DNA of 47,954 nt from a virus (IMGVR_UViG_3300020200_000004); one strand, 5' to 3'. Counted from the stretch's first letter, positions 1 through 32,672 are shown. Numbers and translations are program-made. Notes: generated by a model not told the origin, from the sequence alone.

Positions 1-264
1 AAGGGATCAATTGGAATGATTATAACAGGCATTTCAAGAGGGGGACTTTTGTTCAAAGACGAAAAGTAATTAAAAAGTTTTCGGCTATGGATATTGAAGC
101 TTTGCCCCCAATGCATGAAGCTAGACTTAATCCAAATTTAATGGTAGAAAGAAGTGAAATTCAAGAACTTGATATGCCGCCTTTTATTAAAGTGACCAAC
201 AAGGCAGATGTAATTTTTAACGGTGCTGAACCTTTGACAGAATTTAATTGTACCAAGGAAAGCC

Positions 265-594
265 ATGAAAACTAAAAAAGCAAAAAAAGCTTTCCTTGAT
301 GGCTATAAAACCTATTCCCCAGAGAAGGAAGGCTATGGTTCTCCCTCTGATTGGGTAGAGAATTTCCGTTCTAGGATGGGTTTAAATGAAGCCAAAGAGG
401 TTCTAGGAGACAATGATCCCTTTAACATCCTTGGACTGCCTAAAGGGGCAAGCTGGGGCGAAATTAAGTCAGCCTACCGTAAACTGGCCATGCAAACTCA
501 TCCTGACCGCAACCCAGGTGATGAGGAAGCTGCTATTAAATTTAAGAAAGTCCAAGCTGCGTATGAAATTCTAGAGGCAAGATATAAGGAGTAA
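265..594 (+). CDS. J-domain (DnaJ-type) co-chaperone
   Basis: C-terminal [33 protein letters not shown] with the HPD motif; preceded by motif B. Confidence 0.9.
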
Positions 595-660
595 ATTAAA
601 GATAAAATTTTCCAGAAAGTTTTCTTTGACAAAAAGTAGCAAATTTGTTATTGAAGTTAT

Positions 661-696
661 GTGCCGTTCTATTCTTACGGGGATAGAAGGATGCAC
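661..696 (+). repeat. 36-nt hairpin repeat A, copy 1
   Basis: GTGCCGTTCTATTCTTACGGGGATAGAAGGATGCAC; a degenerate partial copy follows at about 706-730. Confidence 0.92.
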
Positions 697-725
697 ACCC
701 ATTTAGCATTCTTACGGAGATAAAA

Positions 726-962
726 ATGCATGATGAAGGGCATTGGCGTTTAAAAGTAGATGAAGAGGGGTATTGTCCTTGGCATTTAACAGAAAAAATC
801 GCTGTTAAATGTCATGAAGAAGGTATATCAGCAAAGGATGGATTTGGTCTAATCTATAAAATTGAAGGTGATGATCGTCCCAAATATGTTCGCTGGATAA
901 TATCTGACATACAATATAAAATAAATAGGTTAATCAATGCATTCTCAAAAACTAAAAATTGA
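726..962 (+). CDS. hypothetical protein
   Basis: 78-aa ORF whose ATG lies at the end of the degenerate repeat A copy. Confidence 0.6.
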   Translation: MHDEGHWRLKVDEEGYCPWHLTEKIAVKCHEEGISAKDGFGLIYKIEGDDRPKYVRWIISDIQYKINRLINAFSKTKN

Positions 963-1022
963 AAGTTTACCGATTGAATTGCAAAATATTTATGATAAAT
1001 TGCATTGGTCAAAAGTATTGGA

Positions 1023-1058
1023 GTGCCGTTCTATTCTTACGGGGATAGAAGGATGCAC
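1023..1058 (+). repeat. 36-nt hairpin repeat A, copy 2
   Basis: Identical to copy 1. Confidence 0.92.
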
Positions 1059-1118
1059 AGTGTATTCCTTTAGACTCCGAACCAATACATATTTGTGGCA
1101 TGAATTGATTGTAATTTA

Positions 1119-1406
1119 TCATATAGGTCGATATTGTCTCGTAACAACTTCAATATTCTCTAATTCTTGTGGTAATGGCGGACTGTAAGCTGTATCATTA
1201 GGGTTTTCTTTTTGTATACTTCTGGCATTGTCAATAATTTGTCTTGCTTGAATAGGATTAATGATTTCTTCAGACGGTGCATATGGGTTTTTAGTTGGTC
1301 TGCCTAATTGTAATGCTTGATATGCAGCCAGAAAGCGGCCTCTACGGTATTGATGCCTTGGATTAGGGATAAATTCGTCACCCATGAATTCTCTGAAAGT
1401 AACCAT
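1119..1406 (-). CDS. hypothetical protein with MxxFxEFxxxE-type N-terminus
   Basis: 95-aa ORF (MVTFREFMGDE), inverted relative to its neighbours and bracketed by repeat A copies; ATAGATA upstream. Confidence 0.65.
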   Translation of the reverse strand: MVTFREFMGDEFIPNPRHQYRRGRFLAAYQALQLGRPTKNPYAPSEEIINPIQARQIIDNARSIQKENPNDTAYSPPLPQELENIEVVTRQYRPI

Positions 1407-1423
1407 GATAATTATCTATTCAA

Positions 1424-1460
1424 GTATCGTTCTATTCTTACGGGAATACGAAGGATGTAC
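1424..1460 (+). repeat. hairpin repeat A, copy 3
   Basis: GTATCGTTCTATTCTTACGGGAATACGAAGGATGTAC. Confidence 0.85.
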
Positions 1461-1516
1461 TCTAATCAACTTCAAGCAATTTTAATTGTACCAAGGAGAA
1501 ATAAAAAAGGAAAAAA

Positions 1517-1768
1517 ATGGCTAACCAATTACAAGTCCTGCGAATCCCTGTAAAAGATGCTCTGCCCGATAACGATCAATGGACGAATCGCTTCGAAATT
1601 CGTAGTCAAACCAGTAATCGTGTGTATATTGTGGCTCAGAATAAGGCTAAACGGCACTTCGGGTGCAGTTGCCCGGCGTACCGTGTTCACCGTCATTGCA
1701 AGCATCTGAAGGCTTTGGCCCTTCCTTGCTATGAAAAGCCTCATGAAGTTCAAGTTACTAAGGGGTAA
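1517..1768 (+). CDS. SWIM-type zinc finger protein
   Basis: CSCPAYRVHRHCKH (CxC..CxH) preceded by a Y-x-V beta segment; follows motif B at 1481. Confidence 0.75.
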   Translation: MANQLQVLRIPVKDALPDNDQWTNRFEIRSQTSNRVYIVAQNKAKRHFGCSCPAYRVHRHCKHLKALALPCYEKPHEVQVTKG

Positions 1769-1976
1769 ATTATGAAAAACCCTTTTGACCAATTAAGTTG
1801 GATAGGATTGTTGTTTTTGCTAGAACGCACAGACTTTAATGAACCTTAGATGGGTTTGGATTTGCTTCAACTATGAGACAAGAGTTGTTAGAGGCAGCGA
1901 ATCGCAAAGTTCAAGCAAATAATAATGATCCAATTATGATGGGAGTTCTTCAACAAATTCGCAAAAGATTAAATTA

Positions 1977-2246
1977 ATGGAAAAATATAACGGTCAAACA
2001 CTTGGATGGGGACCGTGGCGTAAGGATTGGTATAGTATCTGTTCCGCACACAGAAACTACGATTCTGAATGCCATTTGTGTGCCGCTGGCCATTATTGCA
2101 ATAAATGGAAGTTGTTTTTGTGGCATATCGTTTTTAAAATTTCCCCTAAGTTGTGGCAATGGTGGGCAAATCAGCCAAACAGAAAGTCTAGAAAATTCAT
2201 TGAAGAGGTTTTCCCTAATCTAAGGCACGAAGATAACATCCAGTAA
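1977..2246 (+). CDS. hypothetical protein (Cys/His/Trp-rich)
   Basis: 89-aa co-oriented ORF. Confidence 0.6.
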   Translation: MEKYNGQTLGWGPWRKDWYSICSAHRNYDSECHLCAAGHYCNKWKLFLWHIVFKISPKLWQWWANQPNRKSRKFIEEVFPNLRHEDNIQ

Positions 2247-2255
2247 AAACCAAAA

Positions 2256-2291
2256 GTACCGTTCTGTTCTTACGGGAATAGAAGGATGTAC
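2256..2291 (+). repeat. hairpin repeat A, copy 4
   Basis: GTACCGTTCTGTTCTTACGGGAATAGAAGGATGTAC. Confidence 0.9.
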
Positions 2292-2335
2292 TACGCATAG
2301 ACAGAAACTAAAATTTTGGATATAATATTGATACC

Positions 2336-2371
2336 GTGCCGTTTTATCCTCAAGGGGACAAAAGGATGCAC
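2336..2371 (+). repeat. hairpin repeat A, copy 5
   Basis: GTGCCGTTTTATCCTCAAGGGGACAAAAGGATGCAC. Confidence 0.88.
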
Positions 2372-2650
2372 ACATTACCAGATTTTGAATATAAAGGCTG
2401 GGAACTCAATGATGCCTTGAATGCCATTTATGCATATGATAAAGGTTTTACAGATTCAGGCGTCAGTGATCCAATCATGATGCAGGCTGTAAGTGATTAT
2501 TTTGGTAAACTGGATAGAAATCAAACTGAATTAGTTGTATCAAATTATCTGTTTAAATATTGTTTATCACCAGAGGCTATTATGGCTGGTTATGGTGTCG
2601 CTGATGCACAAGAATTCATTAAATGGTGGGAAGAAAATTTTTATTTATAG
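2366..2650 (+). CDS. hypothetical protein
   Basis: Start reassigned to the ATG inside the 3' end of repeat A (MHTLPDFEY...). Confidence 0.65.
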   Translation: MHTLPDFEYKGWELNDALNAIYAYDKGFTDSGVSDPIMMQAVSDYFGKLDRNQTELVVSNYLFKYCLSPEAIMAGYGVADAQEFIKWWEENFYL

Positions 2651-2664
2651 AAGGGAGTAACTAA

Positions 2665-3051
2665 TTGAAACCAACTACTCGCAATATTATCGTTGACATT
2701 ATTATCAGCGATCATCAAACTAAAGGCAATGCTTATCTGCCTCATCAAGATAAAGTTGAATTAACGAATTACTTAGTTCACGTTTTAGTTAATCCAGCGA
2801 CATTAAAAAGGCATTTGCAATTCTTAGCTGATATGAATGTTAAACCTAATTGCGCAGTAGATAGCGAAACGGCCAATTTGATGCTTCATGAAGGTTTAGA
2901 TAATATTAATAAGTCGGCAATTGCTAAACTGGCTATTGATAAAATTGCTTTGATTTTTCTTCATAGGCAAATCGACAAATTAACTCCTGAAAAGTGGATA
3001 AAGGCGATTGAAGCTGAAGGTGTTAAGAAGCTAGTACCTCAAGAGAAATGA
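2665..3051 (+). CDS. hypothetical protein
   Basis: 128-aa co-oriented ORF with GGGAG upstream. Confidence 0.6.
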   Translation: MKPTTRNIIVDIIISDHQTKGNAYLPHQDKVELTNYLVHVLVNPATLKRHLQFLADMNVKPNCAVDSETANLMLHEGLDNINKSAIAKLAIDKIALIFLHRQIDKLTPEKWIKAIEAEGVKKLVPQEK

Positions 3052-3052
3052 A

Positions 3053-3325
3053 ATGAAATATTTTCTTATTGTTTTATGTTTGTTCATTTGTGGATGCAGA
3101 AAACAAAATAATAAAGCTGTAGAAGCTGTGTCTGTCCGACCCGTTTTTGCAAGCCAAGAAGATTTTTTATCTCAATTTCCAACAGATTCAAAAAACATCA
3201 AAGATATTGGCAATGGCTGGTTTACATTTGATTGTGTAGTTTCGGGAAAAAACAGAACCTTTTTGCTGGGGCGATATAGAACCTACGGCAGCTATATCTC
3301 AGGGACAATTACGGAGTTAAAGTGA
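3053..3325 (+). CDS. putative lipoprotein
   Basis: MK + hydrophobic stretch + ICGC lipobox-like sequence. Confidence 0.5.
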   Translation: MKYFLIVLCLFICGCRKQNNKAVEAVSVRPVFASQEDFLSQFPTDSKNIKDIGNGWFTFDCVVSGKNRTFLLGRYRTYGSYISGTITELK

Positions 3326-3479
3326 TAAAGTGATGACTATGACCAAAGAAGATTTAAAGGATTGCGATGAAACACCCACTTTAATTCTAAGTTTACCTGA
3401 ACATGGTTTAATTGTAAATGTAGTTGATCTTGTAGCAAATAGAGAAGATAATTCAGTTAGAGTAATAGTAAGAATTTAA

Positions 3480-3845
3480 ATGGAAGGGAAAGTGATGGAC
3501 CAAAAAACATGGCAGGAATTCTATTGCAATAAATGTCCAGGCGGCAACTACATCATGGTCAAACTCAATATAGGGCTTGACTATACTGTAGCTGTTGTTT
3601 GCCCTATGTGTGGCGCTAAACATGAACGCACAATTGAAAAGGGGCAAATCTTTGATAGAGGCAAAAAAAATAATTATATAGAAGAAATCTGCCCACCTAA
3701 ATCTGCTTGTAGTAAAGAAGCAAGACATTCTAAAATTAAACCTGGAGCAAGAGATGGTGCTATAGTTAAAACAGATAAAGATTTAGTCAGAGATAGCATC
3801 ATGCGTGAACTTTGGTTAAGCTATCATGGTGGCGAGCAAGATTAA
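3480..3845 (+). CDS. hypothetical zinc-ribbon protein
   Basis: CNKC...CPMC pairs. Confidence 0.6.
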   Translation: MEGKVMDQKTWQEFYCNKCPGGNYIMVKLNIGLDYTVAVVCPMCGAKHERTIEKGQIFDRGKKNNYIEEICPPKSACSKEARHSKIKPGARDGAIVKTDKDLVRDSIMRELWLSYHGGEQD

Positions 3846-4122
3846 TGGTATTGAACTTTTAAATAAAAAGCATCTCGGTTGGAAAGAAAAGATTGATAAA
3901 GATAAGATCAAGATGGAATGGGGAAATCCTGAACCCTTTACCGGCTGCGGTTGTATTTTGACACAGATTTATGGGCTATATGCTAAAGGTTTGTTAGAAG
4001 TGTGCCCAGATTATAAAGAAAAAGGCGGCTATCGTGGTTCTGCTGTTTACTATGGTTTTACGATAGCTGAATCAGATACCTATTTCAATGAATTAACAGA
4101 AGAATGGAAAAAACAATTATAA
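3826..4122 (+). CDS. hypothetical protein
   Basis: 98-aa ORF; stop directly precedes repeat A copy 6. Confidence 0.55.
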   Translation: MVASKINGIELLNKKHLGWKEKIDKDKIKMEWGNPEPFTGCGCILTQIYGLYAKGLLEVCPDYKEKGGYRGSAVYYGFTIAESDTYFNELTEEWKKQL

Positions 4123-4123
4123 T

Positions 4124-4159
4124 GTGCCGTTTTATTCTCAAGGGAATAAAAGGATGCAC
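4124..4159 (+). repeat. hairpin repeat A, copy 6
   Basis: GTGCCGTTTTATTCTCAAGGGAATAAAAGGATGCAC. Confidence 0.9.
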
Positions 4160-4182
4160 GAAAAAACAACTAGAGACTGAAA

Positions 4183-5025
4183 ATGCGTAGAGGCAATAAT
4201 AATTCCTGGTTAATGCTGTCCAATTTAGTCCCCGAAACCAAAAATGATGTTCTACTTGGCATCAATTTAGGCGCTGACTACACTGCGGAGCATGAATGGG
4301 GAATTGATGGTCTTAAACAATCATTCAAGATCAAGGATGAAGGTTTAGGTATTGAAAAGAGACGTATAGAAGATTGCTCAAAAGTTGAATACAGCGAAAA
4401 AGTTAAAACTGTAAAGAAAACAAAGACAAAAGAAGCAGTCTTATTTGTTAATCGCTATGGTTTGCCAAATTTCGCTGATAGGATTTGTGAAGATGGCGAA
4501 CTAAATTGGCCTTGTTATTTTAATCCTACTATTCCAAAGGATTTAGTAACAGCTTGGAGCGAAGATGATTTTGGCATTCGTGTAAGAAACGAAGAAGTTG
4601 CCAAACTTAATGAACTTTATCAAGAATTTAAGAAAAAGAATGTCGCTGTTTGGGTAGGTGGTGGCCATGTTTTCCAAAACGGTGGTCTTATTTTTGGAAT
4701 TATTGATAGGATTCCAGAACAATATAAACAACAAATGTATGATAGCGACCTGGACAGGCAGAACTTAAATGAAGCTGCTGAAAAGACAGGTATTAAAAAG
4801 AAATTGGAAGATGCAGATAAAGGTAAAAGATGGGAACTTAAGGAGTTTGGCTTTTATGCATTAAGTCCACGATGGGCCAAAGAACGAAAAGAAATTGAAA
4901 CACAATACCCTGTAATTTTCTGGCTTAACCCTAACCATCAAGATAGGTTTAAAGCTGGGTATTTTAGTGTGGAAAATTTGAAAGATTGGATGCTGAATAA
5001 GGGTCCGATTATCAAAAAGTCATGA
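4183..5025 (+). CDS. hypothetical protein (280 aa)
   Basis: Long ORF with phage-like AT-rich codon usage. Confidence 0.8.
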   Translation: MRRGNNNSWLMLSNLVPETKNDVLLGINLGADYTAEHEWGIDGLKQSFKIKDEGLGIEKRRIEDCSKVEYSEKVKTVKKTKTKEAVLFVNRYGLPNFADRICEDGELNWPCYFNPTIPKDLVTAWSEDDFGIRVRNEEVAKLNELYQEFKKKNVAVWVGGGHVFQNGGLIFGIIDRIPEQYKQQMYDSDLDRQNLNEAAEKTGIKKKLEDADKGKRWELKEFGFYALSPRWAKERKEIETQYPVIFWLNPNHQDRFKAGYFSVENLKDWMLNKGPIIKKS

Positions 5026-5539
5026 GTTACAAAGATCACGCCAAGATTAGTCAATTACGCTATACCGATCCGAAACTTTCAAAAACCGGCTTTGAATTTA
5101 AAGTTGACCGCTGGTTTACGCCAGTAATCGACCCTGATAACTTGGCTTATTATTCTTTATTTAAGCCATTTAATCTGTCATATTATCTAAGCCCACGTCT
5201 GCCTATTGACATGGGTTTGACTGACTTTGAGACAATATTTGGGAAAGTGCCTAATGTATTGAGAATGCCCATTAAGTTTCCCAATACTGAATACAGAATC
5301 CCAAAGGAATTTGCTAGACTTCAACCATTCTTTCAAAGATTAGCTGGATATGAGGCTTGGATTAATGAACAGCATGATAGTTCTTTCGCTCATATGGCAT
5401 TACCCAACAGTTTATTTGAGAAGCGGGTGTCGGTCAACGGGACTTTGAATATCATATTCTTTAATTTTTCCGAGTTATCTGTGAAGGATTCATTGATCCA
5501 GAGTTTGAAGTTTCGCATGAAATAGTTATAGATATGGTT

Positions 5540-6022
5540 ATGAAATTTAAAGAGTGGTTTAGATTAGATGAAGGATTGCAGATCATACACATTGATCCAG
5601 AAGAGGATTGGGAGTATGGGGAGCAGGCTTATCAGATAGCTAAGATGGTAAATATTCGTCCATCACGGAACAAGAATCCTACGATAATTGCCTTAAACGA
5701 CAAATCGGAGGTAATTGGTGCGGCATTTACGTCATGGGAGGACGATCATGATGCTACGCAAGAGGCAGGGGAGCCGATAGCTCATTATGATTTTGATGTT
5801 GTGGTACATCCATCGTGGCAGGGATATGAGATGGTGGGGATGAAGTTGATACGTCAGGCGGAATTAGAGCGTAAGAATTTAGAATCACAATATGGTCAGA
5901 AGGCATATACACGAACTTGGGTAGTGAATCCGAAGTTAGCTAGGGTATTACAGACGCCACGCTATGGATACGAGGCAGATTCCGAGTATTCTGATGGTTC
6001 TGCTCATTTGAGGAAGTGGTAA
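5540..6022 (+). CDS. GNAT-family acetyltransferase-like protein
   Basis: EVIGAA beta strand and DVVVHPSWQGYEMVGMKLIRQAE (motif A-like); N-terminus MKFKEW..DE; TATAGATA upstream. Confidence 0.6.
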   Translation: MKFKEWFRLDEGLQIIHIDPEEDWEYGEQAYQIAKMVNIRPSRNKNPTIIALNDKSEVIGAAFTSWEDDHDATQEAGEPIAHYDFDVVVHPSWQGYEMVGMKLIRQAELERKNLESQYGQKAYTRTWVVNPKLARVLQTPRYGYEADSEYSDGSAHLRKW

Positions 6023-6225
6023 TGTTTAAAAAATGGTTAGAGAATGAGGAATTAGTGCAATAAAAACGAAATGCACGAAATGTCACTCATTCAATTGTCT
6101 TTATTTGAAGATGGTCGTCTATTTGCATGACGGTCATCATCGTGTTGTATCGACGTTTCTGGCGGGGCGGAAAGAACTCGATCCATCCGAATATCATGTC
6201 ACCAATTGGACCTATTCGGTAGGCA
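6022..6225 (+). pseudogene. Disrupted ParB/sulfiredoxin-like gene fragment
   Basis: YLHDGHHR motif; broken frame after MFKKWLENEE; truncated at the GC-rich junction. Confidence 0.45.
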
Positions 6226-6235
6226 TTAAGGCTCC

Positions 6236-6664
6236 TTATAGGCCACGGACGATTTGGCGGAAGTGGTCCACGTCTTCACGGCTGTCCTGGATTTGTCCTT
6301 CAAGGAAAATCTCAAGCCACTGCCCATCAACGCCTCCTAACTCGTCAGAGTCACGCATACGCTTGACGTAGTTGGTGACTACCTCTTCTTCCATCGTCAA
6401 GGCATACCGAAGTATATCCTTCGGGTCCGTCATGAGGGGGAAACTATTGCTTTCTTCCGTGGCTTTTCCACCCAGGCCCACGATCACGTCCGAGAAGGCC
6501 GTAACGTGAAGCATCTCGCCAGCGGCTTCTTTGAGGAATAATTCCTTGTATTCCTCGCAGTGGAGGCCCTGGACGGCGCTGGCGTGATACAGGTAGAAGC
6601 GAAGATGCTTCCACTCGTTCTTGAGATCGTCGTTCAGCAAGTCAATCATCTGTTGCTTGTTCAT
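6236..6664 (-). CDS. Ferritin/bacterioferritin-like protein
   Basis: 142 aa from MNKQQ; ferroxidase-like ligands NE..EEY..EAAGEMLH..MEEEV..EDVDH; GC-rich codons. Confidence 0.85.
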   Translation of the reverse strand: MNKQQMIDLLNDDLKNEWKHLRFYLYHASAVQGLHCEEYKELFLKEAAGEMLHVTAFSDVIVGLGGKATEESNSFPLMTDPKDILRYALTMEEEVVTNYVKRMRDSDELGGVDGQWLEIFLEGQIQDSREDVDHFRQIVRGL

Positions 6665-6672
6665 TCTTTTCT

Positions 6673-6855
6673 TTACTTTCCAAAGGGCGTCGTGCCGTGG
6701 TCGTGGGAGTATTCCATTTCCTTGAAACCGCCGTAGTTGAACGACGGCCTTTCGTTGGATTGGGCGACTTGCCAAGCCAACTCAAAAGCGTAGCACGCCA
6801 CGCTTTGAATGCCCGCCATGTTGATCCGGTCAACCGTGTCGCTAGGCGTATGGTA
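6673..6855 (-). pseudogene. C-terminal fragment of an M28-family peptidase
   Basis: YHTPSDTVDRIN motif at the insert edge; no N-terminal part present. Confidence 0.6.
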
Positions 6856-7622
6856 GGCACTGATGCATCTGAAATTGAACCAGATCATTACCATCGTTTC
6901 CCCGGATTTCATGGCGATGGCATTCAAGGGACTAAATTAACTCCAAAGGTAAATGTTGAGCATTCTTATATTGTAACGACTGCTCCAGCTACAGAGTTTT
7001 GCTTGCAACCATTCTTCCTTAAACATTTGGATGAAGCAAAGCATAATTTCTTTTTGGAATTTGACAAGCAAGCCAAAAAAGATAACATTTATACATCTTT
7101 ACCGGGGCATTTGTATCTGATTGATCCTTATATGGTTCATAGGACACCTAAGATTACTAAAAAGTGCAGAAGGGTATTCGTCAGGATTACATATGCATTT
7201 ACTGAATTGCAACATCCTAAAAATACTGTGAACCCTATGTTTGAAGGGCAGCAATATGAAAAAAGGGTGGATATCAGAGAAAATCTAACACCTTTTGAAT
7301 TTGCTGTGCCTTATCATCTGTATGGAATTAATTGTACCAAGAAAGCGTAGATAAGGCTTGACTTTAGAGAATCACATTTGTAGGATAAGTGATTCTCTGG
7401 TTTTTACAATTTCAAAAAGGACAAGGAAAATGTCGAAAACGGAGTATTTGCTAAGAAGTGTGTTGCGGAATGTGAATCAGATTCAAGCAGATGATGAATT
7501 CACAAAAAATAGGCTATCCGATATATCCTATTTTACCAAAGCAGCTATAATTGCCCAAGAATTCCATGAACAATATACTGCTGATGACCAAAGGGGCCGG
7601 GATAAACTACGTGATAGGAGCA

Positions 7623-7794
7623 ATTATTTTTTGAAGACCATTGACCATTAGTTGCCAACCACCTGTGCCGGTTTTTGTTTGTGCATATTGGTCAATTAGT
7701 TGTTTTATTTGTAATTGGATTGGTCCGGTTGAACTCGGCGTGTTGTCAAGTTGTTGGGCGGCTGTTTTATTGGTATTGATAGACTTGTGGAGCA
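7623..7794. mobile_element. 172-bp insert flanked by GGAGCA direct repeats
   Basis: GGAGCA at 7617-7622 and 7789-7794; carries an antisense coding fragment. Confidence 0.6.
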
Positions 7795-8020
7795 TTTTTA
7801 TGAAGCAAAAATTCAGTGTAGCGGAAGACACGACAGGCGACAAAGTGCATAAAATCATGGTGGAAAACTGCCCTACTTCTGGGCTTCAACGAACAGAACA
7901 AATAGGTATGTATTTTTGGAATAGAATTTGGCTAATGCGTCCATGTACTTTAAGTGAGATAGAACATATAGTTAAAGTTGTCAAAGACTTAGAAGACCAA
8001 CTTTGGGGTGTGGGAGAAAC

Positions 8021-8183
8021 GTGCTGCAAGTAGAGCGTCACCATCACAAAGGCAACGATCAGATCGTCGCCCTCTGCAAGACCAGCAAGGAGTTGTACAA
8101 GCAAGTAGTTATCACGCCCAAGACCTTCGGGTTCGTGATTGACGTGCAGTACGAAGTACCCGATCAGCCAAAAGGTGAGAAAC
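8021..8183. mobile_element. 163-bp GC-rich insert flanked by GAGAAAC direct repeats
   Basis: GAGAAAC at 8014-8020 and 8177-8183; C/G-ending codons unlike the flanks. Confidence 0.65.
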
Positions 8184-8409
8184 ATAAAGGTGTTTGTGCC
8201 ATAGGCAGGAAAGTAATCAGGGACGAGGATGTTTCAAGGAACGGTTTGTTTCCGTCATCGTCCAATAGGAGAATTGCCAGTAATTAATGAATGTGTAATA
8301 TGTAGAGAACCATTTTACATGTGGCTTTGTTCAGATATCGTATGGCATGGACTCCCAAAAAAACTATGGAAAAAAACAATCTGTGAAAACTGTTTTGTGA
8401 GTAAAATCA

Positions 8410-8658
8410 ATGGCTGTAAAACTAAAAAAGCGTGTCGTTAGAGAAACAAATGAAGTTGATAGCAGAACCGGCAAACCCCTTATCATCATGTTGGCAGAGG
8501 GTGGGAAGCTAGTTCGCATTAAAGTTAAGAATGAACGTACTTGGTATACCGTTTCAATTAAAGAAATATATGTAATGGGTGGCAGAAATAAGGCTGATGA
8601 TATAAAAAGGGAGAAATTGGCTCGAAAAGAGGAAAGAAAACGGTTAAAACTAGTATAG
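8410..8658 (+). CDS. hypothetical basic protein
   Basis: 82-aa Lys/Arg-rich ORF. Confidence 0.7.
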   Translation: MAVKLKKRVVRETNEVDSRTGKPLIIMLAEGGKLVRIKVKNERTWYTVSIKEIYVMGGRNKADDIKREKLARKEERKRLKLV

Positions 8659-8665
8659 ATAGTGT

Positions 8666-9649
8666 ATGTCATGTTTATGTGCAAGTTGCTGTCAATGTTC
8701 TGATTGGTTAGTCCCAGGAACATTCGTATACTCTTCTAGCTCTGATTGGACAGTGACAGGAGTTTCTTGCCAGCCGGTAGCAAATTTGGTCAATGGAGGG
8801 GCTGATTTATATAAACTTACTGATTTCTGTGAATGGACAGCATTTAAAGCGCCAGATTTTTTCAATTGGGTATTTTTTGATCTGACAAGAAGCGGCACTA
8901 CATTTACATTAACTATAAAAGCTTCATGTGTAGATTACTCTACATCATTATTAACATATACCACAACCACAAGTGAATGTTGTGATCCTACTATTACTCT
9001 TGAATTGCAATCTTATTCTGGGGCAATGTTTTCAGTGTATCCAGTCTCCATCACATTAACAAGTGGAGACTGCGCAGCTTGTTTAGGCGATCCTCATTTT
9101 ACAGGTTTCAGAAAACAAAAATTTGACTGCCACGGAACACCAAACCAAATTTATAACTTAATCTCCGATGCAAATGTGCAATATAATGCCAGTTTTATTC
9201 CTTGCATTCAACCAGGAGCAACCCATATAGACCATGTTGGGCTTAAATTAAATAAAAAGCATATATTTTTCCACAAAACAGCTAAGCCTACATTAAATAA
9301 TCAAGAAATTCCTGTCAACCAATTGATTGAATTTCCTTCCGGTTTGCATGACATTAAGGCAAATTTGTTGTATAATGGTAGCAAGCTGACCGTTTTTACT
9401 GGAAAATACGTTATCAGCATGTGGCCTGGAATGGAATGGTATGAACCTCTTGTAAATCAGGAATTTAAATTAGCCGGTCATGGCATATTAGCTGACGGTG
9501 TAATTCCTAATGGTATTATCGGCATGACAGTTAAAGGCGATTTCGATGGCAACCATGAACAATTTAAGATGAAGTCTCTTTGGTCAGAATGTGATCTAAA
9601 TTCCTCTGTTAACCCAATCAAAGGTATTCTAAATATTAGAATGCTATAA
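8666..9649 (+). CDS. Cys-rich protein with C-terminal von Willebrand type D / root-cap-like domain
   Basis: CLGDPHFTGFRKQKFDCHG...YNLISD..VQYNASF signature; TATAGATA upstream. Confidence 0.6.
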   Translation: MSCLCASCCQCSDWLVPGTFVYSSSSDWTVTGVSCQPVANLVNGGADLYKLTDFCEWTAFKAPDFFNWVFFDLTRSGTTFTLTIKASCVDYSTSLLTYTTTTSECCDPTITLELQSYSGAMFSVYPVSITLTSGDCAACLGDPHFTGFRKQKFDCHGTPNQIYNLISDANVQYNASFIPCIQPGATHIDHVGLKLNKKHIFFHKTAKPTLNNQEIPVNQLIEFPSGLHDIKANLLYNGSKLTVFTGKYVISMWPGMEWYEPLVNQEFKLAGHGILADGVIPNGIIGMTVKGDFDGNHEQFKMKSLWSECDLNSSVNPIKGILNIRML

Positions 9650-9650
9650 G

Positions 9651-10097
9651 ATGTTTATTTACAAAAAAGTTAAGCGGTTTGACGAAATAACCGGCAAGCC
9701 TAAATTTGAAAAAGCTTATGCTGAAGTTAGATGCGATTTTACAGGTGTTGTATTAAGTTATGATGACAAATATTGCTGCTATCCATTAGATTATGGAAGT
9801 GTTGACCCTTGCTTTGGGGCAGGTGATGACGAAGAATATGCATTTGGGCAAAAGTATGATATAGATATGCATTGTTTCTTAAGTCCAGACTATCACTTTG
9901 CTTCAAACGGTGGTGGAATAGATCGTAAAGACTGTGCTGAAGCAATGATGATGCGAGAAGCCCTTGCTGGTGCTAAAAAGAAGAATGAATGGTATTGTTG
10001 TTTTACTTTTGACTCAATGTGCCGTCATGCTAGAATCAGAACTGCAACAAAATTAATTGAATCAGGTGAAATCAAACCACATGATCTTATCCAATAA
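9651..10097 (+). CDS. hypothetical protein
   Basis: 148-aa co-oriented ORF. Confidence 0.7.
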   Translation: MFIYKKVKRFDEITGKPKFEKAYAEVRCDFTGVVLSYDDKYCCYPLDYGSVDPCFGAGDDEEYAFGQKYDIDMHCFLSPDYHFASNGGGIDRKDCAEAMMMREALAGAKKKNEWYCCFTFDSMCRHARIRTATKLIESGEIKPHDLIQ

Positions 10098-10128
10098 AAA
10101 ATAAATTGAGAGTATACGCAGATTATTA

Positions 10129-10161
10129 TTGTAGTCATACTATTTTAGTGAATGACTGCAA
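10129..10161 (+). promoter_or_regulatory. Start-codon-sequestering hairpin of the LAGLIDADG gene
   Basis: TTGTAGTCAT / ATGACTGCAA stem; TACTAT spans the stem-loop junction. Confidence 0.65.
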
Positions 10162-10976
10162 GAACATACAATGATTCTGACATATTGGCATTTTATGAAG
10201 AATATAAAAATACTGAAAATTGGCCGCTCGTAAAATTCGCCCAAAAAAACAATCTAAAAATTTATGGTTTAAGGAATGGATTTAAGAGATTAGATTTAAA
10301 AGTTTTCTCTCAAGAAATCACTAAAAGAAAATATCGCATAAATGATAATTTTTTCCAGGATATAGATACAGAAGAAAAAGCGTATTTTTTAGGATTTATT
10401 TTTGCAGATGGTTGTAATTGTAAAAGAAGATTAGAGGTTTCACTGGCTAAACAAGATATAGATATATTAGAAAAGTTATCGAAAACTCTATTGTTTGGAG
10501 TTAACAATATAAAGGAGTATAAAACTAAAAAAGAAGGGTGTCAAGATAAAATTGGCTTATATATTGTTAGTGAAAAATTGACTGATGATTTAAAGAGATG
10601 GGGGTGCGTGCCTTGTAAAACTTTTGTTTTGAATTTTCCTAAAGTTCCAAAACATTTAATCAATCATTTTGTTCGTGGATATTTTGATGGGGATGGCTCG
10701 TTAACATTTGGTGAAAGGAAAAAAACTAAATATTGTGATGTTTATTTTTCTATTGTTTCCACTTACCAAATGTTGACCGCAATAGGATCGAACATTAATC
10801 TTTTAGGTGTTAACTGGTACATAAATAAACGACACAAAGAAAGAAAGAATAATAATTACACTCTTAGGGTGCATGGTAAAAAGCAGATAAGAAAAGTTTG
10901 TGATTGGCTTTATTCAAATGCCACTATCTTTCTTAATCGCAAATTTGAGGCTTATCAAAGATTAGTAAATTTATGA
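10152..10976 (+). CDS. LAGLIDADG (DOD-type) homing endonuclease
   Basis: AYFLGFIFADG and HFVRGYFDGDG motifs. Confidence 0.88.
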   Translation: MTARTYNDSDILAFYEEYKNTENWPLVKFAQKNNLKIYGLRNGFKRLDLKVFSQEITKRKYRINDNFFQDIDTEEKAYFLGFIFADGCNCKRRLEVSLAKQDIDILEKLSKTLLFGVNNIKEYKTKKEGCQDKIGLYIVSEKLTDDLKRWGCVPCKTFVLNFPKVPKHLINHFVRGYFDGDGSLTFGERKKTKYCDVYFSIVSTYQMLTAIGSNINLLGVNWYINKRHKERKNNNYTLRVHGKKQIRKVCDWLYSNATIFLNRKFEAYQRLVNL

Positions 10977-11974
10977 AGAATAAAATTAAAGGAATGATGC
11001 TAGGTGTTGGCATTGGTGACGCTCTTGGAATCCCATTAGAAAATATGTCTTATAAAGATATACAATCAGCTTATGGTATAGTCACCGATTATCTATATAA
11101 ACCTTTTCTTTCAGACGATACTTCTCTCACTATCGCTGTAGCGGAAGCATTATTAGAAGATAGAACCCTTGGGGCACAAACTCAAACCCTTGAATCACAA
11201 GCAAAACACCATATTGCAGCCTATAATGAATCAACTTATGGCTGGGGATCAACAACTCGCTTAGCTGTGCAAAAATTAAAAGATGGGGTACATTGGTCTG
11301 TCTCTGGTACTAAAGGTGGCAAAATTACAGGGCTAGGCAATGGCTGTGCAATGAAAATAGCTCCTGTTGCCGTGGTGCTAATTGCCGATGAATTTAAATT
11401 TTTTAGTTCATTAGTTCAATTCCAAGGTGTAAATTTCATTGCTGACTTATGTGCTATGACTCATCAAACCAGTCTTGCTATTTCTTCTGGACTGGCCCAA
11501 GCAGCAGCAATAAAATATTGTCTCCAGCAAAAACCAAGTAGTTTTAATGCAAATGAATTTTTAGATGCAGTTATAAATGCGAGCGAGTTTGGGAAGAGAT
11601 ATTTTCCAGATACTTTTGTCCAAGACCTTTCTTTGCGGCTTGCTGAGTGCTATAATTACAAGAACTGGCCTGTTGAAAGGTGTGTAGAGGAACTAAAGGG
11701 GACGTGTTATGTGTACAATAGTCTACCTTTTTCCTACATGTTTTTCTTGCGCAATCCAAACAGCATTGATTCATTGTACCAAGTAGTATCAGCCGGTGGC
11801 GACACTGACTCAAACGCTTCAATGGTTGGCGCTTTATTGGGCGCTTTAAATGGAAAAGATATATTCCCTTCTCACCTAGCGGAGAAACCTATATTTAACA
11901 AATTAAACAACGTTGCTGAAAGATTAGCTGAAAGATTTACTCTATTAATGCATGAAAATTGCAGCATTAAATGA
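10973..11974 (+). CDS. ADP-ribosylglycohydrolase (DraG/ARH family)
   Basis: GMMLGVGIGDALG, SDDT, GNGCAM and GGDTDSNASMVGALLGA motifs. Confidence 0.92.
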   Translation: MKNKIKGMMLGVGIGDALGIPLENMSYKDIQSAYGIVTDYLYKPFLSDDTSLTIAVAEALLEDRTLGAQTQTLESQAKHHIAAYNESTYGWGSTTRLAVQKLKDGVHWSVSGTKGGKITGLGNGCAMKIAPVAVVLIADEFKFFSSLVQFQGVNFIADLCAMTHQTSLAISSGLAQAAAIKYCLQQKPSSFNANEFLDAVINASEFGKRYFPDTFVQDLSLRLAECYNYKNWPVERCVEELKGTCYVYNSLPFSYMFFLRNPNSIDSLYQVVSAGGDTDSNASMVGALLGALNGKDIFPSHLAEKPIFNKLNNVAERLAERFTLLMHENCSIK

Positions 11975-12847
11975 GATTAAATTTACAAAGTTACATCCAC
12001 ATACAAAATCAAAACCTGGAAATAAATACGGTAAATTAACTTTTATTGATAAGCGAGAAGGATCGTTAAATAAAGGATTTATATGGCAATGTGATTGCGG
12101 AACACTTTGCGAATTACCTTCTAATTATGTTCGTTATGGGAATACTACTTCTTGTGGATGTTTTCGAAAAAGTGGAGAGGCTTGTAGAAAGCACAAATGC
12201 CCTGACAGCCTAACTGCACAACAATTAAGTGTAATTACTGGATCAATGTTGGGAGATGGCTGGATCGACAAAACACTAGGGAACCATAGATTTAAAAAAG
12301 CACAAATTCATTATGAATCTATAAATTGGATATGTGAGATATTGAAGCCATTTACAGAAAAGGTATATGAGAAATACACTAAACAAAAAATAGTTAACAA
12401 AGTTAATGGTGAAAAATGCAAGCCATTTTGCATACCATGTGAAAAGCGGTTGACTCATTATTACACAAGGACATGCAATCATCCAATATTTAGCGAGTTA
12501 GAGACAAAATGGTACAAAAGAGACGGAAATGGAATTTATATTAAGGATTCAAAAGGCTGGAGAATTAAAACAATACCGGATGATTTGAAGCTCACTCCAG
12601 AAATATTGATGATGGCAGTGTAAAACATAAAGCAAAACAAAGTTATTTATGTACAAATGGCTTTTCGATTGAAGACAATGAAATTTTAAAATATAAATTG
12701 AAATTTGATTTGGGCTTAAATTGTTCTATCACTAAAGATAACCGGCTATATTTCGGCGCAAATAATCACTTGGAATTACATAAAATTATTGCACCATTCG
12801 CAAATACATGGGAGTGTTTTAAATACAAATTTAATTATGTTTGCTGA
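11952..12847 (+). pseudogene. Frameshifted LAGLIDADG (I-SceI-like) homing endonuclease
   Basis: GSMLGDG in the first frame; second motif DDGS..LCTNGFS continues in another frame from 12608 to TGA at 12845-12847; N-terminal KYGKLT..WQCDCG. Confidence 0.75.
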
Positions 12848-13562
12848 TAAAATTAATGGTAAATGCGTTTCCATTGCTGATACACATGGAGATTTATCAA
12901 AAGTCAAAAATATGCTAGGGTTTTTATGTAAAGAAAAAATAATTGATGATGATACGTGGCTTGTGTTTCTTGGGGACCACGTTGATATTGGACCTGATAC
13001 AGCAGGAACTATAAATTTACTAATTAATTTCCATAAATATCATCCAAAGACAACGTTCCTTTGTGGCAATCATGATTTAAACTTAATTAAGGGCTTAAAT
13101 CTAATTGACAATCCTGACCATGAATTTTATTTAAACAGGATTCCAAATAGATGTTCAGCCACACTTAAGTCTTATAAAGCTGCTAATGCCAAAGAATTAA
13201 ATGAAAAGATGCCAGACAGCCATAAAGAATTCTTTAAGAAGTTGGTTTGGCATTGTGAGCATCCTGATTTCTTCTTTGTACATGCTGGTTTAGACTCAAC
13301 AGAACCATATGATTCACAGTTGAAGAAGTTACAGGCAAGGGATATTAACCAGTATAAGCCTAAGTGGTTATATGAAGATAGTTTGGGAATGCATATGCCG
13401 CCTGTAGATACTAATAAATGTGTAGTTTCTGGTCATTGCATTCGATCTTATATTTTAATGGATGAAAACAAAAAGAGGATTGGGCTTGATACTGGTTGCG
13501 GTTATAATGGGCCTTTGTCGGCTGTAGCTTTGCCAGAATTCAAGTTCTATCAAGCAAAATAG
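12837..13562 (+). CDS. Metallophosphoesterase (PPP/ApaH-like)
   Basis: DTHG, LGDHVDIG, GNHD, HAG and GH motifs. Confidence 0.9.
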   Translation: MFADKINGKCVSIADTHGDLSKVKNMLGFLCKEKIIDDDTWLVFLGDHVDIGPDTAGTINLLINFHKYHPKTTFLCGNHDLNLIKGLNLIDNPDHEFYLNRIPNRCSATLKSYKAANAKELNEKMPDSHKEFFKKLVWHCEHPDFFFVHAGLDSTEPYDSQLKKLQARDINQYKPKWLYEDSLGMHMPPVDTNKCVVSGHCIRSYILMDENKKRIGLDTGCGYNGPLSAVALPEFKFYQAK

Positions 13563-13597
13563 TGCCGTTCTATTCTTAAGGGGGTAGAAAGATGCAC
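13562..13597 (+). repeat. hairpin repeat A, copy 7
   Basis: GTGCCGTTCTATTCTTAAGGGGGTAGAAAGATGCAC; first G is the last base of the upstream TAG. Confidence 0.88.
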
Positions 13598-13759
13598 TGG
13601 CAACCTGAACACGCATCATCAGAAATTGAAGAAGCAATGGAATCATGCAAATTAACAGAACATGATCGTGATGAAGTTCGTAGGTTTGCTGAATTCTTGA
13701 AACGATTAAAGGATCATAAAGAAAATAAAAAGCTTGAACCTGTTCCAAATGGCATTTGA
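13592..13759 (+). CDS. hypothetical protein (55 aa) starting inside repeat A
   Basis: MHWQPEHASSEIEEAM..., below the ORF track cut-off. Confidence 0.55.
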   Translation: MHWQPEHASSEIEEAMESCKLTEHDRDEVRRFAEFLKRLKDHKENKKLEPVPNGI

Positions 13760-13986
13760 TTTATGATTTCAACATCGAAACAGAAAGTGGCTTTTGTTCA
13801 TTGACGCACTGTTTGACTGTTCCTACAGAGACTAAAGAACAAATTGAAGCTTATTTCAGGAATTGGGGCACTCCTGAAATGGCTAGATATTGCGAATCGG
13901 CAGGATATAACTTCCATAAATGTCCTCTTGTGTTAGGTTTAATGGCTGGCGAAGAAGTTTTCAACCCAGATGGGACACTTATATGA
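13756..13986 (+). CDS. hypothetical protein
   Basis: 76-aa ORF coupled to its neighbours. Confidence 0.55.
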   Translation: MIYDFNIETESGFCSLTHCLTVPTETKEQIEAYFRNWGTPEMARYCESAGYNFHKCPLVLGLMAGEEVFNPDGTLI

Positions 13987-14154
13987 GTTTAACATTTCAA
14001 GATTTAAGAATTTGTGCTGATACTCTTTATGATGCAATCCACAATAAAGTTAATACATGGGATAGTGAAATTCTGGACGAAGTTTTAACCAAAATTGAAA
14101 ACATGCTAGATGGTATTTGTTTAATGGAAATTTTGCCAGATGATAAAATGGCAT

Positions 14155-14322
14155 TTAATAGCCAGTTAAAAGCCATTCAAATCCATCTGGAGAGCTAAAA
14201 GCTGCATATATTCCATCTGTTCTTACATTAACAGAAGTATAACCATTTGGCACTTGAGTTGGCCTATTAAATATCTTGTTCAAAAAACCTTCAGATATAA
14301 GGAATTTTTTAAAATCTGTCAT
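14155..14322 (-). CDS. hypothetical protein (55 aa, MTDFKKFLISE)
   Basis: ATG overlaps the kinase stop codon. Confidence 0.5.
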   Translation of the reverse strand: MTDFKKFLISEGFLNKIFNRPTQVPNGYTSVNVRTDGIYAAFSSPDGFEWLLTGY

Positions 14323-14930
14323 TTATTTATGATTTCCTCCATAACCTTTTTAACGCTTTCTAGATTATTTCCATCTACAACGAAGAAATTGTTTCCAAAT
14401 AATCCTTGAACGCCTGGCCCTTTTTCTCCTGAAAATACGTTGCCAAGCACTTGCTGATGAACCTTTCTTAGTTCATTTGGGTCACTTAGGCTACGTTCTG
14501 GCCTGTTTTGATTTCTTTTCAAGGCAACTTCGGGGTCTGTGTTAACGTAAACGGCAAAACACTGGTAGCCGCCTTTTTCGCTAAGGGCTTTCAGTTGAGC
14601 AATTGTCCTGAAGTTTTGACCAGTTTTTTCAGTAACTATAGGATAGCCTTGTTTTAAATAATGATCAATTCTCTTGTCATTTTGCACAGATGCCCAGACG
14701 TGATGTTGCTTTTGTTGAGGGTCATTTAAACTTACATTAACTTTTTGCTGATTTTGTATTTTACGCATCATAGCTTCGAAATATTGGTCAATAATAGCCA
14801 TTCTGAAGCCATTTGCAGCAAACATTTTGGCAATATAGGTTTTTCCTGCCCCTGGTCCACCTAACACTATGACCAACTTAGGGTTATATTCTTTTACATA
14901 TCCTTCCAAAAATTGCGCAAAAGTAATCAT
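14319..14930 (-). CDS. P-loop kinase (AAA_33 / zeta-toxin-like)
   Basis: IVLGGPGAGKT Walker A; LKRNQNRPER lid-like segment. Confidence 0.8.
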   Translation of the reverse strand: MITFAQFLEGYVKEYNPKLVIVLGGPGAGKTYIAKMFAANGFRMAIIDQYFEAMMRKIQNQQKVNVSLNDPQQKQHHVWASVQNDKRIDHYLKQGYPIVTEKTGQNFRTIAQLKALSEKGGYQCFAVYVNTDPEVALKRNQNRPERSLSDPNELRKVHQQVLGNVFSGEKGPGVQGLFGNNFFVVDGNNLESVKKVMEEIINK

Positions 14931-14980
14931 TCATTTTATTTACTTTTAAAAATGGTATTTTAATTGTACCAAACGAAAAA

Positions 14981-15013
14981 AAGTAGGGGAGCGGTCGGTC
15001 CACTCCCCTACTA
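14981..15013 (-). terminator. Hairpin with adjacent A-run (minus-strand intrinsic terminator-like)
   Basis: GTAGGGGAG / CTCCCCTAC stem preceded by an A-run. Confidence 0.5.
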
Positions 15014-15274
15014 CCACAGTACAAAGGTGATTCCGTCACCCAATAAAATTGTACAGATTTTTGCTGGATTGTCAAGCGATAAAAAAATCTGTCTTTTTTC
15101 AAAAATTACGATAGAATGGAGAATGGTTTATGGCTACTCCGTGGCGTTGTCCTAGTTGTGGGTATGATCCTCCTTTGCCGCCTGTTGGGGGAGCATGCCC
15201 AAATTGTTCAGCTGTTGTACCAGTAAGCGGTTGCGGTCTATTCCTTGTTATACTGGCTTTTTGTATAGTATTTT

Positions 15275-15610
15275 TTGGGGGATGTTGATTTGAATGGTTA
15301 TTTAGGTACAATTGACGTTGAATCCCTTGATGGTACAGAATTTGAAGGATATGGGCCTGCTGAATGGGGTCTATATTTTATTATGATGTATGGTGGGATT
15401 GACGGGGATCATCATAAAACTTGGGTATTAGATCAAGTTGCAAGATGCTTATTAGGTACTCCCGTTAAAGTTAAATTAGCACGATGGGAGAATGGTCAAC
15501 AGGAATATCGGTGCAGCACTCAAAAGCCGCCTTCTGATAAGTATTTAAAATGGGTCGAAGATATATGTGAAGGCGGCGAATATAGTTATGATGAAGGCAT
15601 TGCTCCTTAA
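15275..15610 (+). CDS. hypothetical protein
   Basis: Stop codon is the TAA of motif B at 15608. Confidence 0.7.
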   Translation: MGDVDLNGYLGTIDVESLDGTEFEGYGPAEWGLYFIMMYGGIDGDHHKTWVLDQVARCLLGTPVKVKLARWENGQQEYRCSTQKPPSDKYLKWVEDICEGGEYSYDEGIAP

Positions 15611-15627
15611 TTGTACCAAGAAATCAC

Positions 15628-16067
15628 ATGAAAATCAAAAATGTAATTGACAAGGCGAATGATCGTATTAACCAAATAGATGAAAAGTTAAAGGAAATGA
15701 GGGGTTACTTTCCTCCCCATGATTATGAACAGGACATATGGTGGCTAGAAGGTCAAAGGCAAGCTTTTAACGAAATCATTGGTTATCTGATTAACATTGA
15801 CGAAACGGCAAATTAATGAAAGCTGATAATAGAAATCTTGGGGTTGGTCTTACTTTGAGGCAAGTCAGGGACTATCTTAATTCTTTGGATGAGAAAACTC
15901 TAAACAAAGCTTTCACAGTTCAAGGTTTAAAAGATGGCTATGACTTTCTTAGCTATATTGGCCCTGCCGAAGAACAACTGTTAATTGGCCCGAATTGGTT
16001 TCATCATGATGTATTAGTGGAAATTGGCGAACCCATAGCTATTCTTCAAGATGAGTCTATCACATGA
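15628..16067 (+). other. Two small coupled hypothetical ORFs (15628-15816, 15816-16067)
   Basis: First follows motif B; stop/start overlap. Confidence 0.6.
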
Positions 16068-16214
16068 AATGTGAACGGTGCCAGAAAAATTATGATTTTC
16101 TGCTTGACTATTGTGCAATTTGTCTTAGAAATCTATGTAATAAATGCATGGAAGAAGGGCATTGTAATAACAAACCTGCTTTAAGTGGTATGGAAGCAGA
16201 TTATGGAGAAGAAG

Positions 16215-17977: not shown

Positions 17978-18248
17978 AATTAAAGTTGGGCAATGGGTTA
18001 AAAGAACTTTAAAATCTAAAAGCAAGCACATGGGCGATTTTACTTGAAAACCTCATTCCTTTGGGCAGGTTGCTCAAATTCGCTCTAGCATTTTGGGGAT
18101 AAAGGTTTGTGATGTTGATATATTTTGTCCGTGTATGATTCCGACAGCAGACGAAGGTGGAGTTGACAACTATATGCAACGTGTATGGGCAGAAGATGAA
18201 TGTATACGTATAAAAAAACCTAGAAAACACATTTGCCCGAAAGATTAA
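17958..18248 (+). pseudogene. Hypothetical gene with internal TGA
   Basis: Open frame broken by TGA at 18045-18047; ends at the TAA of motif B. Confidence 0.5.
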
Positions 18249-32661: not shown

Positions 32662-32672
32662 TTGTACCAAAT

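Follow-up and report, generated by a model that had tools for sequence, protein, structure and literature searches.

A seven-copy 36-nt hairpin repeat with an internal ATG at gene junctions of a virus genome fragment

Introduction

Huge phages carry hundreds of small genes whose regulation is unknown, and the locus described here raises the question of what a short hairpin, repeated at the junctions of such genes, may contribute to their expression. The DNA is a stretch of 47,954 nt from a virus (IMGVR_UViG_3300020200_000004), which was analysed over its full length and is referred to as the 48-kb window; judged from its gene content it looks like part of a very large phage, one from a lake. 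Seven copies of a 36-nt unit, termed repeat A, are found on its + strand between positions 661 and 13597. An initial annotation had described them as hairpins with compensatory changes that connect a stop codon with a start codon, and had left two explanations side by side, a translational-control or RNA-processing element, or a single-stranded DNA element of the repetitive extragenic palindrome (REP) or miniature inverted-repeat transposable element (MITE) type, spread by an HUH nuclease. The fold of the + strand, the position of the copies at cistron junctions and the use of the internal ATG as an apparent start favour the first of these. Repeat A is read here, tentatively and with somewhat less than even confidence, as a structured translation-initiation and coupling cassette in mRNA that would have spread locally together with cassettes of ORFan genes.

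Copies and limits of repeat A

The seven co-oriented units share the consensus GTGCCGTTCTATTCTTACGGGGATAGAAGGATGCAC and start at 661, 1023, 1424, 2256, 2336, 4124 and 13562, all on the + strand (repeat finder, family D11); they are numbered copies 1 to 7 in this order. A degenerate-pattern search recovers six of them (661, 1023, 2256, 2336, 4124 and 13562) and gave no match in 100 shuffles. The unit is 36 nt long, except for copy 3 (1424-1460), which a 1-nt insertion extends to 37 nt. A covariance model (R1) was built from the seven copies and scanned over the window with filters off, a check that had been proposed with the initial annotation; it returned all seven with scores of 55.9-63.6 bits and no further copy. 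The next site in the window reaches only 15 bits, and therefore no hidden copy is present in the 48 kb. A seven-copy repeat confined to the + strand, as first described, is thus borne out by repeat finder, pattern search and covariance model alike, with 0 copies expected by chance. Mean column identity of the seven copies is 89%. When flanks of 60 nt were aligned, similarity was found to end at the first and the last base of the repeat A stem, the flanks themselves not being conserved; since conservation ends at the stem base, repeat A is a discrete unit.

A further, degenerate copy had been placed at about 706. Part of this claim stands, in that a partial relic is present at 698-731 on the + strand, 1-2 nt downstream of copy 1, which has in common with repeat A an exact 10-mer (708-717) and the sequence ATGCA. 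As a copy proper it does not stand, for it was not found by the covariance model at E ≤ 10 and folds weakly (-4.7 kcal/mol, z -0.85). The GGGG of the repeat has become GGAG in the relic, with good Shine-Dalgarno (SD) spacing, and the pairing is lost.

Fold, strand and compensatory changes

All seven copies adopt one fold, in which a basal stem of 4-5 bp is separated by an asymmetric internal loop from an upper stem of 9 bp, capped by a YAMG loop of 4 nt; this is the fold of the initial annotation, to which ViennaRNA adds a C5-G30 pair. Folding of the + strand RNA gave dG values of -9.5 to -13.6 kcal/mol (ViennaRNA), and within contexts of 116-146 nt the upper stem belonged to the minimum free energy structure every time, usually together with the whole hairpin. 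Standard pairs account for 98.8% of the pair cells in the alignment, compared with 38-68% when the partners are slid, and the observed covariation is reached by four of 500 column shuffles. Three pairs have changed on both sides. The covarying pairs noted earlier include pair 3/34, which goes from GC to AU in the copies at 1424 and 2256, and pair 9/26, which goes from CG to UA in those at 2336 and 4124; the double compensatory changes correspond to two independent, branch-specific events.

The alignment holds 11 G·U cells versus one A·C cell, and the − strand folds are weaker by 2-7 kcal/mol in five of the six copies folded (in six of the seven, copy 2 being identical to copy 1). The exception is copy 5, whose − strand folds 1.5 kcal/mol better than its + strand. 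From the excess of G·U over A·C, taken together with the weaker − strand folds, it follows that the folded strand is the + strand, which is also the sense strand of 104 of the 107 window ORFs (open reading frames) with gene-like codon usage. Selection on a single-stranded structure that tolerates G·T wobbles, as proposed at the outset, is therefore supported, and can be assigned to the + strand. The 3' segment AAGGATG is conserved, and the ATG occupies nt 31-33 of the unit. It had been described as buried in the stem; this applies to the G, which alone is paired, but not to the A and the U, which are located in the internal loop.

Apparent use of the hairpin ATG at gene junctions

The ATG at the 3' end of the repeat had been taken for the start of genes at 2366 and 13592 and, at the relic, at 726. 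Codon-usage scoring is in agreement with these apparent starts, the ORFs 726-962, 2366-2650 and 13592-13759 being coding-like at about 0.35-0.43 bits/codon and positive from codon 2. The ORFs that begin at the ATG of the unit score 0.34-0.37 bits/codon in their first 13-15 codons and 0.36-0.43 bits/codon over their whole length, and the next in-frame ATG is at least 15 codons away. Public gene calls, on up to 7 contigs, agree with the starts at 726 and 13592 and place that of the third gene at ATG 2366 or GTG 2336; proteins identical to the hairpin-linked ORFs of the window are recorded on contigs of up to 111,954 nt. The gene at 2366, of 94 amino acids (aa), begins within copy 5 (2336..2371), and that at 13592, of 55 aa, within copy 7 (13562..13597). 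In two other copies the ATG opens a mini-ORF that ends in the arrangement stop-AA-ATG, 2 nt before the start of the next gene. For copy 1 (661..696, ATG 691) this mini-ORF has 10 codons and its stop at 721-723, and for copy 6 (4124..4159, ATG 4154) it has 8 codons and its stop at 4178-4180, ahead of ATG 4183 of a 280-aa gene.

On the upstream side, the adjacency to stop codons ending at 4122, 13562 and 2246 was found to be correct as annotated: copy 6 lies 1 nt after the stop (4120-4122) of ORF 3826-4122, the first G of copy 7 is at the same time the last base of the TAG (13560-13562) of the metallophosphatase gene 12789-13562, and copy 4 (2256..2291, with a GUAC/GUAC base) follows 9 nt after the stop (2244-2246) of ORF 1977-2246. 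The linkage of a stop to a start thus holds for two to three of the seven copies but not for the rest, and is therefore not a general property of repeat A. Copy 1, which is identical to copy 2, is found 66 nt after the stop of a DnaJ-domain gene. Copy 2 (1023..1058) has on its upstream side, 60 nt away, the stop of ORF 726-962, and on its downstream side the 3' end of the − strand ORF 1119-1406, which is convergent. Copy 3, with a 1-nt bulge and a GUAU/GUAC base, is situated 18 nt beyond the start of the same − strand ORF and 21 nt upstream of a site at 1482 of a second motif (motif B, see below), which precedes a SWIM-type gene (ATG 1517). An ORF at 937-1188, which would have placed copy 2 inside a gene, was rejected; it scores -0.75 bits/codon after the hairpin, and as it is non-coding by codon usage, all copies of repeat A are intergenic. 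The distances from hairpin to gene start range from 0 to 56 nt.

Proposed mechanism and its main alternative

In the translational reading, repeat A would be a cis-acting stem-loop in + strand mRNA at cistron junctions. The unit has a GGGGA purine run 7 nt upstream of the AUG, and the AUG with the adjacent AAGGA would be held in the hairpin of -9.5 to -13.6 kcal/mol, leaving the start site nearly silent; because a stable fold would shut the start site, initiation would depend on opening of the helix. This could be achieved most economically by a ribosome that terminates on the upstream gene (termination-reinitiation coupling), the stop codon being placed against the foot of the stem in copies 6 and 7. 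Loss of the 5' arm, through processing or in a transcript that lacks it, or a factor acting in trans, could serve the same end. Once opened, the AUG would start the downstream gene directly (2366 and 13592, and 726 in the case of the relic), or would start a mini-ORF of 8-10 codons whose stop lies 2 nt before the next AUG (copies 1 and 6). The relic, in which pairing was lost and an SD gained, fits a copy turned constitutive. The family may be of recent origin and may have spread locally, through duplication or recombination that carried along the small ORFan genes it flanks.

If the hairpin does gate or couple translation, it would represent a reusable plug-in initiation module that puts new ORFan genes under common control, which would help to explain how huge phages domesticate new genes. 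It is at the same time a compact and testable RNA part of 36 nt, for which natural compensatory variants are in hand.

Several observations weigh against this reading. A long ORF is fed by just two copies, plus the one relic, and a coupled mini-ORF by two more; the ATGs of copies 2 and 4 lead nowhere (ORFs of 6 and 4 codons, respectively), and the frame opened in copy 3 runs beyond the start of the next gene. An upstream stop within 10 nt is found for only three of the seven copies, and the genome is so tightly packed that any intergenic element is placed near a stop and a start. The compensatory signal consists of two events among seven close copies, and template switching at a quasi-palindrome could mimic it without selection. 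Finally, repeat A comes with no relatives that carry it and no candidate binding protein.

The positions of the copies with respect to genes may also be rationalized by a hairpin for RNA processing or stability, that is, a barrier to 3' exonucleases, a cap-like hairpin at a 5' end, or a site for an endoribonuclease of host or phage, whose ATG would have been co-opted incidentally. Five of the seven copies follow a + strand gene at -1 to 66 nt, copy 2 separates two convergent genes, and the only − strand gene of the region has copies 2 and 3 on either side in an insulator-like manner. This gene, ORF 1119-1406, encodes 95 aa, is coding-like and probably real, with an Atlas model of pLDDT (predicted local distance difference test) 0.75 and no homologue; the other − strand genes of the window are two in number, both at 14155-14930. 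Copies 4 and 5 are separated by 44 nt, in which a sigma-70-like site is found, TAGACA-17-TATAAT (2298..2326, +), the best in the first 15 kb by consensus match only, which ends 9 nt before copy 5. As a predicted promoter it would start a transcript at the base of copy 5 or close to it, with the copy 5 hairpin then being 5'-terminal. The sense-strand fold and the compensatory changes fit such an element equally well, but the conservation of AAGGATG and the three ORFs that start exactly at the ATG are left unexplained by it. Moreover, the helix is at most 14 bp, interrupted and too short for classical RNase III, pairing is not extended by the flanks, and none of the genes of the window was recognised as coding for an RNase. 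A role in RNA processing or stability is considered rather unlikely.

Three related assignments were tried and rejected. An RNase III site is excluded by the short helix and the unpaired flanks. An intrinsic terminator is excluded as well, given that none of the seven copies was reported in the terminator scan of 1-15000 and that no T-run occurs in the 12 nt that follow. A uniform sigma-70 promoter upstream of every copy is not present either; in the scan of 1-15000 a strong promoter-like site was found upstream of copy 5 only.

Searches for relatives and CRISPR-like architecture

The nearest record to the window is the uncultured phage LR756511.1 (595 kb), with ~53% amino-acid identity, and a 527-kb IMG/VR genome is a more distant relative. 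The repeat A pattern gave 0 matches over the whole length of both. A strict pattern of 23 positions gave 0 matches in IMG/VR, JGI metagenomes and GTDB species genomes, relaxed patterns gave 0 matches in IMG/VR, and the covariance model R1 returned nothing credible in 162 kb of relatives. Megablast of window positions 1-20000 against phage records gave no match. For the ORFs that are fed or flanked by the hairpins, no homologue beyond self was found among 5.8 billion protein clusters or 50,697 phage records, and the ESM Atlas offered no usable lead. At the hairpins themselves no Rfam family matched, even at E ≤ 10. Repeat A is therefore an element without a relative in any database searched, most likely a new cassette for control at the level of translation or RNA.

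The dimensions of the unit bring in a further explanation, namely a mimic of a CRISPR repeat or a Cas6-type site, which would either supply RNA decoys (Racr-like) within early transcripts or undergo cleavage at the upper stem's 3' base to yield near-leaderless GG-AUG messages. It draws on architecture only: a length of 36 nt, GT...AC ends that are complementary to each other, and a stem-loop of 22 nt with exactly 8 nt behind it, which together correspond to the geometry of Cas6-processed class 1 repeats. Copies 4 and 5 can likewise be seen as repeat, 44-nt spacer and repeat, but this "spacer" holds the promoter-like site described above. Solitary viral repeats have been documented as RNA anti-CRISPRs (PMC10651486). 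Repeat A, by comparison, has no Rfam CRISPR-DR match at E ≤ 10 and no match in the strict and relaxed pattern scans, and the window has no cas gene. A relaxed scan of bacterial genomes for two-repeat arrays returned, among the matches listed, only unrelated arrays of Micromonospora and Anaerolineae and an unrelated 87-nt tandem repeat; saturated by such matches, it does not count as a negative result. No identity to a CRISPR repeat emerged from the scans, which are weak tests because a host repeat at ~85% identity escapes exact patterns. The architecture leaves a CRISPR-like reading of the hairpin with a low probability. Even less probable is its more elaborate form, a multi-copy RNA anti-CRISPR within early polycistronic messages, in which a Cas6-type enzyme of the host, or of a gene elsewhere in the phage genome, would bind the 22-nt stem-loop, cut 8 nt from the 3' end and be titrated, thereby freeing near-leaderless GG-AUG downstream messages and leaving the upstream message capped by a protected 3' hairpin. 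If true, the CRISPR-like reading would extend RNA anti-CRISPRs to multi-copy forms embedded in mRNA, and would provide a natural case of CRISPR-type RNA processing for phage gene expression.

What defines the solitary repeat units (SRUs) is resemblance to a CRISPR repeat already known, usually the host's own; they are mostly single and located behind their own promoter (PMC10651486). Like an SRU, repeat A is a 36-nt structured intergenic phage unit without cas genes, with an 8-nt tail after the stem-loop; unlike an SRU, it occurs in seven copies inside coding operons, and no repeat matching it was found. Two of the intergenic copies are only 44 nt apart, and a promoter-like site precedes one copy only.

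Spread and origin

From the DnaJ-domain gene to the SWIM-type gene, LR756511.1 has 360 nt with two unrelated small ORFs and no hairpin, whereas the window has 923 nt with three hairpins, one ORFan and one inverted ORFan. The six clustered copies fall into three sister pairs that differ at 0, 3 and 3 positions, and the sisters are also genomic neighbours, which argues for local duplication, recombination or gene conversion along with cassettes, and not for a trans-acting enzyme or transposase. Among the ~107 window ORFs, none was assignable to an HUH/Y1 transposase, integrase, Cas6 or RNase family.

These observations bear on the possibility that repeat A acts primarily at the DNA level, as a module for recombination or as a mobile element of the PeSL (promoter-early stem-loop), REP or MITE type, a patch of homology or a nuclease target that moves ORFan cassettes, with the RNA fold being secondary. 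The altered DnaJ-SWIM interval (923 versus 360 nt, three hairpins versus none), the flanked ORFs without homologue and the neighbouring sister copies are all compatible with it, as are the spacing of only 44 nt from copy 4 to copy 5 and the relic 1-2 nt past copy 1, both of which look like recombination scars. It is nonetheless judged unlikely. No transposase, integrase or HUH enzyme was found among the ~107 window ORFs, target-site duplications are absent, the flanks are not conserved and one orientation is kept throughout. A length of 36 nt is short for efficient homologous recombination, and both the one-strand G·U tolerance and the compensatory changes would be superfluous for double-stranded homology.

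The REP/MITE branch of the initial annotation, with its spread by an HUH nuclease, is thus not upheld; the suggested search for a Y1/RAYT (REP-associated tyrosine transposase) enzyme found none among the window ORFs, and the single orientation is free of the inverted pairs of REPINs (REP doublets forming hairpins). REPs number in the hundreds, are commonly paired in inverted orientation and rely on a RAYT encoded in the genome. Repeat A is like them in being an imperfect palindrome of ~35 nt that is intergenic, often just after a stop, would be transcribed within operons and tolerates G·U pairs; it differs in its seven co-oriented copies without inverted partner, in the lack of a Y1/HUH gene in the window and in the relatedness of neighbouring pairs.

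Comparison with known stem-loop elements

Hairpins that contain the AUG and SD region are found in the messages of the phage T4 genes e, soc and I-TevI and in the MS2 replicase operator, where a stable structure is opened by a transcript that lacks the 5' arm, by an upstream ribosome or by a bound protein. Repeat A resembles them in that its AUG and SD region lie in a local hairpin, but these are single, gene-specific structures, whereas in the window one family is present at seven junctions.

An attC site was considered and rejected, as the unit has 36 nt and not 55-141 nt, its ends are GTGCC.../...ATGCAC and not RYYYAAC/GTTRRRY, and there is no integrase domain in the window.

The PeSL elements of T4-type phages combine a strong sigma-70-like promoter and its AT-rich upstream sequence with a terminating G/C-tract stem-loop (PMC2839356, PMC4122927). 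Like them, repeat A is a short, repeated, intergenic stem-loop motif in one orientation, clustered in a plastic, ORFan-rich region, which flanks genes that differ between relatives; the variable ORFans flanked by PeSLs have their counterpart in the DnaJ-SWIM content, which differs from that of LR756511.1. Both are plausible substrates for cassette shuffling. Repeat A was nevertheless rejected as a PeSL, having no conserved promoter; it also has no terminator tail, and carries an SD-like run and an ATG inside the helix.

The start-associated sequences (SAS) of Cluster K mycobacteriophages are 13-bp SD-containing motifs located 3-8 bp upstream of the start, with the inverted repeats of the extended form (ESAS) farther upstream at a variable spacer, and are found at orthologous genes throughout the cluster (PMC3203893). 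About half of the SAS are accompanied by inverted repeats that can potentially fold, and their role is presumed to be translational (PMC3203893). Repeat A shares with SAS/ESAS the character of a phage-specific, asymmetric repeat in one orientation that is tied to the starts of some non-structural genes. It differs from them as one fixed 36-nt hairpin that itself contains the start codon, and it is not present in the relatives examined.

Genome context and motif B

A second repeated motif, motif B (TTAAYTGTACCAA), has 61 sites at 244-47792, with 60 on the + strand and nearly all lying past 14.9 kb. Before 14.9 kb it is found only at 244, 1482 and 7328, with one near-match at 11770, and this stretch poor in motif B is occupied by repeat A, which has six of its seven hairpins at 0.6-4.2 kb. 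In LR756511.1 (positions 1-21968) a sequence-shifted counterpart, TAAAGCTGTAC[T/G/A]WAA, is preceded by terminators consisting of a GC hairpin and a T-run, and is followed after 20-30 nt by AAGGAG and an ATG. The first 20,000 nt of the 527-kb IMG/VR genome have GAAATTGTACG as the counterpart, and a TGTAC core is common to all three. With terminators before the counterpart and an SD and ATG after it, motif B therefore has the behaviour of a promoter signal common to the clade; the shared core suggests a promoter used throughout the clade, probably one for a phage-encoded RNA polymerase. When close relatives were sought in IMG/VR by means of motif B, only chance single matches inside coding sequences of unrelated phages were obtained. 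The fragment displays two separate, lineage-specific junction codes, the TGTAC motif, whose core is found in two distant relatives, and the younger start-codon hairpins.

The complementary distribution of repeat A and motif B raises the question of whether the hairpin could itself be a signal for a phage RNA polymerase, that is, a promoter of the N4 kind with an extruded hairpin, or a terminator that depends on a factor, either of which would define a transcription class alternative to that of motif B. The promoter-like counterpart of motif B in LR756511.1 shows that the clade has transcription signals of its own. In N4-type promoters, the hairpin is on the template strand. In repeat A it is the non-template (+) strand that folds stably, and A·C mismatches would arise on the template strand; there is no U/T tract after any copy, and the distance to the gene start varies from 0 to 56 nt. 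A polymerase signal is the least probable of the explanations weighed here, and an N4-type hairpin promoter in particular was rejected, the strand being the wrong one and the template folding weaker in five of the six copies folded.

Further genes of the window

Small Cys/His-rich, zinc-finger-like ORFs are located among the hairpins, at 1517-1768, 1977-2246 and 3480-3845. The first of them is the SWIM-type ORF, which is conserved in LR756511.1 with 65% identity. These small ORFs are candidate nucleic-acid binders.

The window further encodes two RNA ligases, a metallophosphatase, ParB-like and DUF932 proteins and a tRNA. The RNA ligases (22503-23633 and 26167-27294) are of the Rnl2-like/PHA02142 type and the T4 Rnl1 type, and a zeta-toxin/AAA_33 kinase-like ORF is found at 14319-14930 on the − strand; together with the metallophosphatase, these genes bring to mind tRNA or RNA repair. 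Two LAGLIDADG-type endonuclease ORFs (10152-10976 and 11952-12623) enclose an ADP-ribosylglycohydrolase gene (10973-11974) and overlap it by a few bases. The tRNA-Leu(TAA) at 46702-46785 is clear, and a second Rfam tRNA at 43369-43440 is marginal (29.6 bits versus a gathering threshold of 29) and absent from ARAGORN. Motif B precedes each of two neighbouring SprT-like metallopeptidase ORFs (32658-33131 and 33149-33622), which are paralogues. In a region of strong GC-skew change, an exact tandem duplication of 88 nt, with its two copies 100% identical, is found at 40252-40427.

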